Shown in pieces: positions 46,140 to 49,100 of a DNA stretch of 64,000 nt. The DNA lies in NCBI RefSeq assembly GCF_051903065.1, contig NZ_CP178438.1; one strand, given 5' to 3'. The stretch comes from Escherichia coli (GTDB taxonomy: Bacteria > Pseudomonadota > Gammaproteobacteria > Enterobacterales > Enterobacteriaceae). Each line of letters begins with the position of its first letter. The stretch's first letter is position 1. The notes under the pieces are model-generated. The model made no database searches, was not told the origin of the DNA, and worked only from the letters and a program-made list of their open reading frames with translations. The translations under genes and the position numbers were made by a program.

Positions 46140-49100
46140 TCAGAACGACCAGTTCACACCAGCCACCGCGTTCCACGGGGATTCCACATCGGCACCGTTG
46201 CTATACCCCACCCCGAGATGCCCGCTTAACGTACTGCTGAATGAGGCTTTAATACCTGCCTGGTATATTTCACGTCTGCCCGACAAATCATTGACGAAAT
46301 TACCGTCATTATTCACCTTCACCCGGTTATCATCGACAAATTCTTTGCGCACAGCCGCCTTCAGCCACGGCTCAACTTCCATACCGTTCCCCAGACGCAT
46401 GTTGTAACTCAGCGTTGCACCCAGTTCACGATATATACTGCGGGTATCGACTGATTTCGATTCCATGCCATTGGATAAATGATATTCAGGGTTATCAGCG
46501 GTGAACCCCGTTAACGATGCATACGGCGTCAGGTTCCAGTTACCATCGGTAAATCGCATCCCGGTTTCAATGTGACCGCCCAGCCCGTTGCTGCGATAAC
46601 TGCCGTTGGCGGCTCCACCGCTGCTCATTTTACCGGCTACGTTACTTTCAAAACGGTTCAGCTTCACGACACCGTCCAGATAAAAACCACTTTCATGTTC
46701 CCAACTGGCATAGCCGCCCAGAGAATAACTGCCCACACTGCCATGTCCTCCGCGATCAAAACCGATATGTGAATGGGAATAGCCCATAAAAGCGCCCAGC
46801 GTGGCAATCCCTTCAGGAATATCATTACGACTGTCGATTCCCACTGTCATTCCGGTCAGCGTCTGCTCAAACCCGGCACCCGCATCGGTGGTGACATTAT
46901 TACGGGTGTTATACGTCGCCCCCCAGACATTATTGTTGTGTGGACTCGCTTTCATTATGTTCAACCGCTCGCGAATACTGTTTAGCTCAGCATCAAATAC
47001 CAACGGTAATGTTGCAGCCATATTGAGTACGGCTGCCGTAGAAGGCGTGATGCGTTTCTCCGGAACGGGTGTCGGCGTTGGATCGGGAGTCGGGTCTGGT
47101 TTCGGATCCGGTTTTGGGTCTGGTTTTGGATCTGGCTTCGGATTTGGGTTGGGATTTGGGTTGGGATCCGGGTTGGGTTTGACATCATTGGTCAGGTTCC
47201 AGTTGCTGTTGCCATCGCTTTTCAGGACATACTCATAGGTCCCAAGATCAACGAAACCGCCAGTATTGCCCAGCGAAAACGAAGCATCCCCTCCCCCTGT
47301 TTTCACCAGCGTCATCGCGTCGTCAGACTGAGGGCTGACGCCGGTATCCTGAACAAAGATTTTAAAATTACCAGTGGCGTTGTTGTTGACGACCAGTTGA
47401 TCGCCCCGGGAGCCAGCAACGTTGGTATGCAGGTAGAAATTACCGCTACCGGAAAGTTCATTGGTTGTCAGCGTATTGTAGATACCGTTAGTTGTGGCAG
47501 GCGCTGCTGTTTGTGCTGATAAATAAACATCACCGTCGTTGAGTAGCAAACTGTTTACTCTATATTCGCAGTTGCTGGTACCTGCACAGGAATTATTGCT
47601 GTTAAGCCAGACACTGCCCCGGCTGGCAGCCGTCAGGTCGGCAAGCGTGGTATCGACGCCATTTCCCAGAGTTAATGTCGCGCTATCGGTAATCCGAACC
47701 GCCCCTTCAAGTTTTACTGGCGTAACATTATCCCGTGGCGTGATTAACGACAGGCTTCCTGTCGCGCCACTGACCGATGCATCCGCCAGCGTACCTGCGT
47801 AGATGATTGCCGTCCCGCCAGCGACCTGGAGATCTTCTGCCCGGGCCAGAGGCTGAAACTCATCTTTTGACCGCCCAAGGGTATATTGCCCGCCAGAGTT
47901 AACCTTTGTAGCGGAGTCCTGACCCAGGTTTTGCATTGCACCACCCTTGCCAACCGTGGAGTCATGGGCTTCGGTACCTGCTAATACCAATAAATTACCA
48001 CCATTTTCCAGCAACATATTGGTCGCTAAATTTCCGGCAATGGAAAAGGTGCCGTACTGGTGAGTACCGCTGATTTCAATACCGTTAGCCGTGCTCGTCT
48101 GGAGAGCGGCACCGCTGTTCTGGACGATATCTGTCGCTTTGCCATTATCGTTGACTGTCAGCGTTCCGCCTTCATTGATCGTTGTTTTTATTGCTTCTCC
48201 GTTAGCTGAAACTGTTTGTATTCCGCCGTCGTTAATTGTTGTCTCATTCGCCACACCCTCGACGATTTGTTCACCGCCGGTGAGCGTCGTGCCTGTCGCA
48301 GTGGCTTTTGTTTTGACGATCTCCCGTCCGCCCGTATTGACCTGTGTTTTGTCAGAAGAGGTGTCTGACTCTACGGTTAACACGCCGCCATTTGCCAGCA
48401 GGATATTGTTCGCCGCACCCTGCTCGATGCTGAACGCGACGCCATCCGCGCGTGTTCCTGTGACCCGCGTCGCCCTGGTGGTTGCAACCAAAGCGCCCTG
48501 CCTACTCTGCTGTATCCCCGTTGCGCTGCCTTTCTCCCACACATCGAGTGTGCCGCCGTCATTAAGCACCGAGTTTTCAGCCAGACCGCCCTCATTAACT
48601 ACCTGTGAACCCCCATTAATAATGGAACCTTCCGCTGTCCCGTTTGCCATAATTTGTTGTAGGCCAGAGACGATATCGGTATTGATTGCCTTACCATAAT
48701 TCTGAACGGTTTGCGTGCCACCATTGATGTGTGTTTTCTCTGTTGACCCACCATCAACAATTTGTTCACCACTTTCGATATTTGCCTCAGTGGCTAATCC
48801 ATATACCGTTTGCTTGCCACCTTTGATATTTGCTTTATCAGAAGTGGCACTGGCATATATTGTTTGGGTGCCAGCACTATTGAGTACAGTGCCAACATCT
48901 TTTCCATAAACATCCATTTTGCCGTTGGCATTAATAATCGTATCAACTGCCCGGGAACCAGTGACGACTGTTAATGAGCCAGCGTTTTCCAGCACTACAT
49001 TTTTAGCTTCTGAATTCCTGATGTAGAAAGCATCACCATAACTGTTGGTTCCTTCGATAAGTGTTCCGGAGGTCGTGGAAGCAATTAATGCGCCGCCGGA

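Follow-up and report, generated by a model that had tools for sequence, protein, structure and literature searches.

The run of 20 Pro-X dipeptides encoded on the minus strand at 47058..47177 of the window, that is, the whole 64-kb stretch of DNA analyzed here, is the proline-rich spacer of the Escherichia coli autotransporter adhesin YpjA/EhaD. The reading preferred in this work, to which a probability of about 0.8 is assigned, is that alleles of this spacer gain and lose whole units by slippage, and that the peptide would form an extended stalk whose length, not its sequence, matters. The spacer is real and already known in kind: it is present in the K-12 reference, and polymorphism in the number of Pro-rich repeats is known in autotransporters (pertactin and those of the TibA type). 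For the window itself it is of little importance, the gene being a known adhesin gene that is inactivated here.

In translation, the run reads PNPDPNPNPNPNPKPDPKPDPKPDPKPDPTPDPTPTPVPE, and its 20 units, from PNPD to PTPVPE, occupy residues 702-741 of the open reading frame 46140..49280. The initial annotation had placed a microsatellite-like coding repeat of degenerate 6-nt units at 47080-47200 and had left the minus strand unstated. The 37-residue peptide that it quoted, PNPDPNPNPNPNPKPDPKPDPKPDPKPDPTPDPTPTP, is encoded exactly at 47067-47177 on the minus strand; the coordinates given miss the ends of the full run by about 20 nt each. The hexamers are indeed degenerate at the DNA level, with adjacent units matching at 2-4 of 6 bases, mixed proline codons (CCA 8, CCG 7, CCC 5), and an exact period-6 match of 3 nt at the longest in the window allele. 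The regularity implied by the description was nevertheless overstated. For the spacer, Tandem Repeats Finder gives periods of 12, 24, and 36, not 6, and the unit that varies here is an exact 12-mer, CCCAACCCAAAT, encoding PNPN. This unit is tandemly duplicated without mismatch at 47142..47165 (minus strand, a 28-nt exact period-12 self-match), and the window tract holds at most 2.3 exact copies of it.

When the 1,109-aa remnant was shuffled 20,000 times, no Pro-X run exceeded 4 units, against the 20 observed, and all six reading frames over the 64 kb contain no other run of 6 or more Pro-X units. Matches of the run to Trypan_PARP (33.2 bits, cutoff 100), which lies far under the Pfam threshold, and to the NCBIfam models for TonB (20.5 bits, cutoff 315) and SslE (22.7 bits, cutoff 3000) were rejected as compositional and sub-threshold. 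The same DNA can also be read in the opposite direction, where an open reading frame at 46801..47238 on the plus strand stays open for 145 codons and would specify a 145-aa product with a Gly-rich GFGSG repeat. That this frame is the real coding feature is practically inconceivable: it is wholly antisense to a product with strong Pfam, NCBIfam, and PDB matches over the same DNA, no record annotates a gene at that position, and the GFGSG repeat is simply the Pro codons mirrored (CCN read as NGG).

The domain architecture around the run confirms the proposal of the initial annotation that it links passenger and beta-barrel, since Pfam, PDB alignments, and an AlphaFold2 model all bracket the spacer in this way. 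On its N-terminal side lies the pertactin-like C-terminal end of the passenger, the autochaperone/junction region (47190..47558, minus strand; PF03212, 153 bits, residues 575-697). This segment, immediately N-terminal of the spacer, also matches pertactin (1dab), IgA1 protease (3h09), and Hap (3syj), and the alignment to pertactin 1dab (residues 429-534) ends 4 residues before the run. Further stretches of the passenger remnant, six in all, match the AIDA family PF16168 (312.7 bits). Directly C-terminal of the spacer, a pore-plugging alpha-helix is predicted at 46953..47045 (minus strand; model residues 186-216, high pLDDT), and the alignments to the BrkA (3qq2) and Vag8 (7akv) translocators start at this predicted helix. 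The match to the BrkA barrel (3qq2, E=2.6e-25) runs from 23 residues past the run, and the autotransporter beta-barrel itself occupies 46209..46928 on the minus strand (PF03797, 154 bits, cutoff 26, residues 785-1024; TIGR01414, 332.7 bits, cutoff 16).

The AlphaFold2 model covers the 486-aa C-terminal module and has a mean pLDDT of 84.2. Confident beta strands are modeled up to residue 137; after the run come a 31-residue helix and then the barrel, with strands at a pLDDT of about 90. The run itself (model residues 144-179) is the only long segment with pLDDT below 50 and is modeled without secondary structure. The barrel, the passenger, and a pore helix, the last as predicted by modeling and homology, are those of a type Va autotransporter of the AIDA-I type. 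The order of the Pertactin domain (residues 575-697), the run (702-741), and the Autotransporter domain (785-1024) corresponds to a proline-rich spacer domain of the TibA style. The sequence gives no sign that the run is spliced out or lies outside the mature protein.

The gene that bears the spacer is E. coli ypjA/ehaD, which encodes an AIDA-type autotransporter adhesin. A megablast search returned 2,557 E. coli records, in which every match is annotated ypjA/EhaD, and the linker was found in 2,556 of 5,426 complete genomes. Identity to K-12 ypjA is 97.4% over 3,515 nt, starting from ypjA nt 1257 (position 3031 of the K-12 locus). The chromosomal neighborhood is that of K-12, with ssrA on one side, where a P2-like prophage is inserted, and a ygaQ-like remnant, glaH, lhgD, and gabDT on the other. 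By identity and by chromosomal position, the locus is therefore the YpjA/EhaD orthologue. Gene, neighborhood, and linker are the same as those of ypjA in K-12 and O157:H7, and the window copy differs by the IS903B-associated loss of its first 1,256 nt.

What is left of the gene is a 5'-truncated remnant at 46140..49470 on the minus strand, equivalent to nt 1257-4581 of K-12 ypjA; promoter, start codon, signal peptide, and the initial 418 codons are all missing from it. Upstream of the remnant junction, a stop codon is met at 20 codons, and no ATG precedes the GTG at 49280. The remnant adjoins IS903B at 49470/49471. This 1,057-bp element (49471..50527, minus strand, as annotated by RefSeq) carries the transposase domains PF13737 and PF01609 and ends in perfect 18-bp terminal inverted repeats, GGCTTTGTTGAATAAATC, at 49471-49488 (plus strand) and 50510-50527 (minus strand), for which 0.01 occurrences are expected by chance; the element immediately adjoins an IS1A. 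The ypjA of the window is thus a pseudogene, from which a rearrangement associated with IS903B/IS1A has removed the first 1,256 nt and with them the signal peptide. For the 100%-identical strain 23CRST031, RefSeq likewise lists ypjA as a pseudogene that is "incomplete, missing N-terminus". As no Sec signal peptide is encoded, the locus is a ypjA remnant and not a functional autotransporter. Because of this truncation, the spacer has no function in the window strain, and its length has no phenotypic effect there. ypjA is also a pseudogene in O55:H7 strains.

The length of the linker varies among strains. The initial annotation had suggested that slippage could change it and that repeat numbers should be compared across strains; the comparison revealed differing lengths, and the variation, by whole units, is confined to the run. 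In complete E. coli genomes, ypjA alleles with 18, 19, 20, 22, and 24 Pro-X units occur, and every indel falls within the run. The flanks, of which GGAACCTGACCAAT and GTTCCGGAGAAACGCATCAC are invariant examples around the linker, show 96-99% identity in DNA and about 99% in protein and contain no indels. When 60 of the 2,557 records, taken at even spacing, were compared with the window, the difference in span was 0 for 8 of them, -6 for 29, and -12 for 20. The linker has 19 units in K-12 and 20 in O157:H7. The window allele equals the 18-unit allele with one further exact copy of CCCAACCCAAAT, and it carries the PNPN 12-mer twice, as in O157:H7 and not as in K-12. DNA alignments show this 12-mer in 1, 2, 3, or 4 copies across strains. 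A synthetic query representing the predicted three-copy allele matched 13 genomes without gaps, including most O55:H7 strains and O157:H7 TX 265-1, and four copies are present in O55:H7 DEC5B. Judged from these allele sequences, with integral units and unchanged flanks, the linker would be classed as a polymorphic coding tandem repeat (VNTR).

Such a series could in principle be produced by errors in assembling or sequencing a low-complexity region. In the paralog of strain LHM10-1, discussed below, a 1-nt indel falls in an A-rich stretch and could stem from a homopolymer error. Every other difference in length is an exact multiple of 6 nt, however, and the variable tract of 12-48 nt is much shorter than any read length. 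The same alleles also recur over independent complete assemblies, with three copies in at least six O55:H7 strains and two in dozens of O157:H7 strains. An artefactual origin of the strain differences is consequently very improbable.

The structure of the alleles instead points to slipped-strand mispairing or unequal exchange at the exact 12-mer, which would be the step that changes the copy number. In the rest of the run, the degeneracy of the hexamers in DNA would prevent slippage. A competing explanation is that homologous recombination or gene conversion is the main source of the length variants, acting either between strains or between ypjA and a paralog located between ymgJ and minE. The flanks of this paralog are 96-99% identical to ypjA, a range that also holds among ypjA alleles and that ongoing gene conversion would yield; such exchange could move linker alleles. 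Linker length classes also follow the classes of overall identity. Furthermore, the K-12-type allele of 19 units is set apart from the others by indels at two distinct sites and by several substitutions, a pattern that is not a single slippage step and that recombination could explain. The series of one to four copies speaks against this explanation: it consists of exact integral 12-mers, and the linker outside the 12-mer is identical within the O55:H7/O157:H7 complex, a pattern characteristic of slippage or of unequal exchange between sister strands. The paralog cannot be the donor of the O55:H7/O157:H7 copy-series alleles, since its arrays are of the form (CCN-AAY)n, without the KPDP portion found in the ypjA linker. 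Recombination as the main source of the variants is thus considered unlikely, though it deserves more weight than an assembly artefact, and slippage or unequal exchange at the 12-mer is retained as the preferred origin.

PGAP also calls the product of the ymgJ-minE paralog YpjA/EhaD, and in eight strains this gene contains 27-43 units as near-perfect hexamer repeats, PN-rich where the ypjA linker is KPDP-rich. In LHM10-1, it is annotated as frameshifted, the 1-nt indel lying in the A-rich part of the array. A very long (PN)n allele of strain VE-T9, at first a candidate ypjA orthologue, proved to be located between ymgJ and minE and was dropped from the orthologue comparison. Variability tracks the perfection of the repeat: exact period-6 matches reach no more than 11 nt across ypjA alleles, which span 18-24 units, whereas exact hexamer runs in the paralog extend up to 83 nt, with the higher unit numbers given above.

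Phase-variable adhesins of Neisseria and Haemophilus resemble ypjA in having a tandem repeat within an adhesin gene whose copy number is altered by slippage. The assignment of ypjA to the phase-variable contingency loci was, however, rejected. In contrast to those loci, its units of 6 or 12 nt keep the reading frame, its tract is short and imperfect, and its alleles are mostly stable within clones, close relatives usually sharing one length. Every ypjA step is a multiple of 6 nt, and the frame is intact in all alleles examined. Since all steps are multiples of 3 nt, they change the length of the protein and do not switch its expression on or off. Length is usually constant inside clones, as among K-12 derivatives, most O157:H7 strains, and seven RIVM strains, which implies a low rate of change. 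The linker accordingly varies as a slowly changing polymorphism, unlike the rapid variation of contingency loci.

As for the role of the spacer, the 20 Pro-X dipeptides bridge the passenger's last beta-helical rung, part of the pertactin-like autochaperone, and the alpha-helix predicted to plug the barrel. The peptide would act as an extended, stiff, polyproline-II-like stalk of about 11-15 nm (36-48 residues at ~3.1 Å each) that may keep the passenger clear of the barrel and the LPS layer, with length being important and exact sequence probably not. The low pLDDT of the run fits a stiff polyproline-II rod and a floppy disordered tether alike, and the stalk role is what we infer. No experiments on the YpjA linker were found in the literature.

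Several known systems can be set beside this proposed stalk. One with a similar described layout is TibA, the self-associating autotransporter of ETEC, in which residues 627-677 form a "proline-rich domain" flanked by the junction region on one side and the membrane domain on the other (PMC3835316); as in YpjA, a Pro-rich segment of about 40-50 residues leads from the junction/autochaperone to the membrane-embedded domain. In Bordetella pertactin, to whose C-terminal end the YpjA segment preceding the run is homologous, the number of the Pro-rich R1/R2 repeats in the passenger varies slowly among alleles, and a role as a polyproline-II stalk has been suggested (PMC8931430). The likeness to YpjA lies in Pro-rich repeats whose copy number differs between lineages on a slow timescale (PMC8931430). 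The units are different, PX dipeptides in YpjA and PQP (R2) or GGxxP (R1) in pertactin. Moreover, vaccine-driven selection has been connected with the variation of pertactin, and no parallel to this is known for YpjA. Alternating Pro-X with a charged X, as in the run, is also found in the spacer of TonB (EP/KP), the N-terminal linker of SslE, and the EP repeats of trypanosome procyclin, all of them non-homologous to the run, with matches far beneath family thresholds. The TonB spacer is generally taken as an extended rigid segment; it is periplasmic, whereas that of YpjA is extracellular.

Alternatively, the run could have a function or antigenicity that depends on its sequence, for instance as a Pro motif that binds a ligand or as an immunodominant epitope under diversifying selection, with length changes selected as immune escape. 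The Pro-X run is surface-exposed by topology, its composition depends on the locus (KPDP-rich in ypjA, PN-rich in the paralog), and the Pro-rich R1/R2 repeats of pertactin differ in number among alleles (PMC8931430). Evidence from homologs nevertheless argues against a conserved binding motif, because the same slot holds unrelated sequence or nearly nothing. Homologs of the YejO type have 5-6 residues without Pro in this position, and 24-84 residues of differing, mostly Pro-rich repeats fill it in homologs from E. albertii, Citrobacter, Salmonella, Klebsiella, Buttiauxella, and metagenomes. These observations come from a survey in which 8,000 word-sharing candidates were scored and clusters of full-length YpjA were unlisted, so that it describes the contents of the slot and not their frequencies. 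The frequent pseudogene state of ypjA (here and in O55:H7 strains) speaks against strong selection, host-interaction data for YpjA were not found, and the pertactin study did not find antibodies engaging R1 or R2 (PMC8931430). A sequence-specific or antigenic role is therefore judged improbable. The range of slot contents, from 5-6 Pro-free residues to 84 varied ones, is consistent with a sequence-tolerant spacer, the reading preferred here.

It is also conceivable, at long odds, that slippage of the spacer tunes the reach of the adhesin to the thickness of the O-antigen or capsule, and far more so in the long array at ymgJ-minE. If this were true, linker length would co-vary with surface polysaccharide type among E. 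coli lineages. Natural spacers run from about 6 residues in YejO through 36-48 in ypjA to as many as about 90 in the paralog, and this series is suited to tests of the influence of spacer length on autotransporter display.

For genome annotation, pangenome, and adhesiome studies that score the presence or absence of ypjA, caution is advisable on account of the in-frame length alleles and the second gene of the same name, "ypjA", at ymgJ-minE. The generic E. coli MLVA marker CVN014 was considered as a possible identity of either repeat and dropped as unsupported: it is reported in all isolates, whereas the linker occurs in fewer than half of the complete genomes. The hexamer array at ymgJ-minE, with its spread of unit numbers over the eight strains, might itself serve as a typing marker.

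The plus strand of the window follows an (NGG-NNN)n pattern at 47058-47177. Its reverse complement lies in frame within a minus-strand ORF, listed as 46140..49280 but open as far back as 49469, and encodes PNPDPNPNPNPNPKPDPKPDPKPDPKPDPTPDPTPTPVPE, that is, 20 consecutive Pro-X dipeptides. The run is beyond chance: the longest one obtained in 20,000 protein shuffles had 4 units, and no second run of at least 6 Pro-X units occurs in any frame of the window. The 37-residue peptide reported in the initial annotation is exact and is encoded at 47067-47177; the interval assigned to it there, 47080-47200, deviates by about 20 nt, and no strand was stated. 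As DNA repeats, the hexamers are degenerate, with adjacent units matching at 2-4 of 6 bases and three proline codons used 8, 7 and 5 times, while the 12-mer CCCAACCCAAAT (PNPN) is exactly duplicated at 47142-47165, inside a 28-nt exact period-12 match. Consequently, Tandem Repeats Finder returns periods of 12, 24 and 36 for the run, and not 6. A plus-strand ORF of 145 aa (46801-47238) was rejected as a gene; its Gly-rich GFGSGFGSG repeat is the mirror image of the CCN proline codons.

The run is of a familiar type and belongs to an already described gene. A megablast search of 5,426 complete E. coli genomes leads to genes annotated ypjA ("adhesin-like autotransporter YpjA/EhaD"), and K-12 ypjA shares 97.4% identity with the window across 3,515 nt. 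In the listed minus-strand ORF, Pfam identifies six AIDA repeats, Pertactin at aa 575-697 and the Autotransporter beta-domain at aa 785-1024, and the product scores 332.7 bits with NCBIfam TIGR01414. Pertactin (its C-terminal end, 1dab 429-534), IgA1 protease and Hap can be aligned to within 3-4 residues of the start of the run, and the translocator domains of Vag8 and BrkA from directly after it. When the C-terminal 486 residues are modelled with AlphaFold2 (18 homologs, mean pLDDT 84.2), confident beta-helix strands continue through model residue 137. Only one long segment, residues 144-179, falls below pLDDT 50 and lacks secondary structure, and it corresponds to the run; a 31-residue helix (186-216) follows, and then the barrel. 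The run is thus predicted to connect the pore helix with the autochaperone/junction end of the passenger. Because solved structures bracket it and the predicted layout agrees, the initial placement between passenger and beta-barrel is right.

Linker length was surveyed with a 721-nt query centred on the linker, which matched 2,557 records (2,556 of the 5,426 genomes). Sixty of these records, sampled at even intervals, were compared with the window: the matched span is the same in 8 and shorter in 49, by 6 nt in 29 of them and by 12 nt in 20; one record (VE-T9) is 138 nt longer, and two are partial. Alignments of representatives show indel-free flanks (protein about 99%, DNA 96-99% identical), and every length difference falls within the run. 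The alleles comprise 18 units (KL53, 3150, FDAARGOS_1291), 19 units (K-12, SM107) and 20 units (the window and the O157-type strain 10671). The window allele is the 18-unit allele with one exact additional 12-mer copy, whereas the K-12 type has a 6-nt insertion at a different site together with substitutions.

Slippage predicts that alleles with a third 12-mer copy exist, and such an allele was built in silico as a query. It matches 13 records end to end without gaps: the O55:H7 strains RM12579, CB9615, DEC5A, DEC5D, DEC5E and TB182A, together with 2013C-4465, FDAARGOS_946, O157:H7 TX 265-1, PT62, LP5-1, MB53 and GPT24-02. In O55:H7 DEC5B the span extends 12 nt beyond the query, and alignment gives a clean series of 1, 2, 3 and 4 copies. 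Within the O55:H7/O157:H7 complex the rest of the linker is identical, and most O157:H7 strains have two copies. Of the 2,525 records found in this search, 366 match at 95-99% identity (at least two copies), consistent with the roughly 14% in the 60-record sample, and 2,143 match at 90-95% (one copy or the K-12 type). Exact integral 12-mer copies among close relatives, with nothing else changed, are the expected product of slippage or unequal exchange. On this sequence evidence, copy number would change through slipped-strand mispairing or unequal sister-strand exchange acting on the 12-mer. Assembly noise was rejected as the source of the length differences, as the tract measures 12-48 nt and the alleles recur across many independent assemblies. 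A phase-variation switch was likewise rejected, because every step preserves the frame. The initial observation is confirmed, and its interpretation, that slippage could vary linker length, is supported with qualifications: the slipping unit appears to be the 12-mer rather than the 6-nt repeat, the polymorphism is slow and in-frame only, and the gene is a pseudogene here.

In three strains with three or four copies, RM12579, TX 265-1 and DEC5B, ypjA is annotated as frameshifted. The gene measures 4,598 nt in RM12579 and TX 265-1, one base below the expected 4,599, which suggests a common 1-nt deletion outside the linker.

The VE-T9 record was rejected as a long ypjA allele: its locus lies between ymgJ and minE, as do all other long alleles found by searching with it, and none lies at ypjA. 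This paralog of about 3.4 kb, also named YpjA/EhaD by PGAP, is present in many strains (for example, at 5035-8439 of locus L009 and 5035-8499 of locus L010, and in loci L011-L016) and absent from K-12. The shared product name could mislead presence/absence studies. Among eight strains, the paralog linker consists of 27-43 near-perfect (CCN-AAY) units and contains exact hexamer runs as long as 83 nt, whereas in ypjA exact period-6 matches reach at most 11 nt and there are only 18-24 units. Matched spans of the paralog take many distinct values from 763 to 859 nt, and the contrast fits the usual rule that a more perfect repeat is more variable. Within clones the array is constant: the span is 775 nt in all seven RIVM strains, 853 in both XJ34 and XJ6-3, and 799 in both ST2747 records. 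All but one of the linker lengths differ from each other by whole multiples of 6 nt; the exception, the LHM10-1 copy, carries a frameshift annotation. Its hexamer array contains a 1-nt indel within an A-rich segment, which is either an assembly error at a homopolymer or a true slip that inactivates the gene. No link was established between the MLVA marker CVN014 and the ypjA linker or the paralog repeat.

In the roughly 300 nt that flank the linker on either side, the paralog and ypjA are 96-99% identical, the same range as among ypjA alleles, and the paralog of DEC5B and ypjA of 10671 (O55:H7/O157:H7 lineage) give identical flank-identity values. The C-terminal module appears to be undergoing concerted evolution or gene conversion. 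Since the paralog flanks are as near to ypjA as ypjA alleles are to one another, conversion between the two genes is a plausible, though minor, alternative to 12-mer slippage for some length alleles.

Homologs were compared over the slot from the last passenger strand (W-x-L) to the conserved (K/R)R-I-T-P-S-T-A-A-V-L-N-M-A motif. The slot has 5-6 residues and no proline in YejO-type proteins, 26-40 residues with DPKP-type repeats in E. albertii, and 26-42 residues of differing Pro-rich sequence in Citrobacter, Salmonella, [Enterobacter] lignolyticus, Klebsiella and Buttiauxella. In metagenomic homologs it reaches 84 residues; the slot of P0051 (40% identity), which has this full length, contains four to five copies of the 12-residue TPAKQVIPASVL, an unrelated repeat family in the same structural position. 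As the slot tolerates near-absence and unrelated low-complexity fillers, it is probably a spacer and not a sequence-specific site. Alternating Pro-X sequences, such as TonB-type and procyclin-type repeats, are generally extended and stiff; hits of the run to TonB, SslE and Trypan_PARP are sub-threshold and were dismissed as compositional. At about 3.1 Å per residue, 36-48 residues would reach roughly 11-15 nm, assuming an extended chain. The favoured reading is that the run serves as an extracellular stalk, one whose length would matter and whose sequence would not. TibA has the same arrangement, with a "proline-rich domain" (residues 627-677) between junction and membrane domain (PMC3835316). 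For pertactin, slow copy-number polymorphism of the Pro-rich repeats R1 and R2 is reported, along with a suggested role as a polyproline-II stalk (PMC8931430). YpjA, for which there is no published structure, is grouped with the biofilm-forming AIDA/Ag43/TibA autotransporters (PMC9289746).

In this strain, ypjA is a dead gene. Homology to the 4,581-nt K-12 gene starts at its nt 1257 (window 49470), and IS903B (49471-50527, with perfect 18-bp terminal inverted repeats, the first base at 49471) and the directly adjoining IS1A (from 50528) together occupy 49471-51295 in place of the 5' 1,256 nt and the sequence upstream. Next to the IS elements comes a truncated "alpha amylase C-terminal domain" pseudogene. 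IS903B/IS1A shows no evident target-site duplication, which suggests an IS-mediated deletion rather than a simple insertion. A stop lies 20 codons upstream of the junction in the reading frame, the remnant frame has no ATG and no signal peptide, and RefSeq labels the locus "incomplete, missing N-terminus" in strains 23CRST031 and 23CRST027, where it is 100% identical. Linker length can therefore have no phenotypic effect in the strain of the window.

In strain 23CRST031 the IS903B-ypjA stretch is an exact match to window 46140-50600; the neighbouring prophage is missing there, and 160 bp separate the end of ypjA from ssrA. In the window, this prophage of about 33.5 kb (~12500-45934) is inserted in the 3' end of the tmRNA gene ssrA (12136-12498), and a 46-bp direct repeat flanks it (12454-12499 and 45935-45980). 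It is P2-like by the annotation of ~38000-46000, and includes a replication endonuclease (37084-39498), CI (42294-42926) and an integrase (42928-43941). Between the integrase and the att site lies a minus-strand 585-aa ORF (43955-45712) that matches NCBIfam NF041025, "anti-phage dCTP deaminase" (420.5 bits against a curated cutoff of 400), and is a predicted defence gene carried as prophage cargo beside the attachment site.
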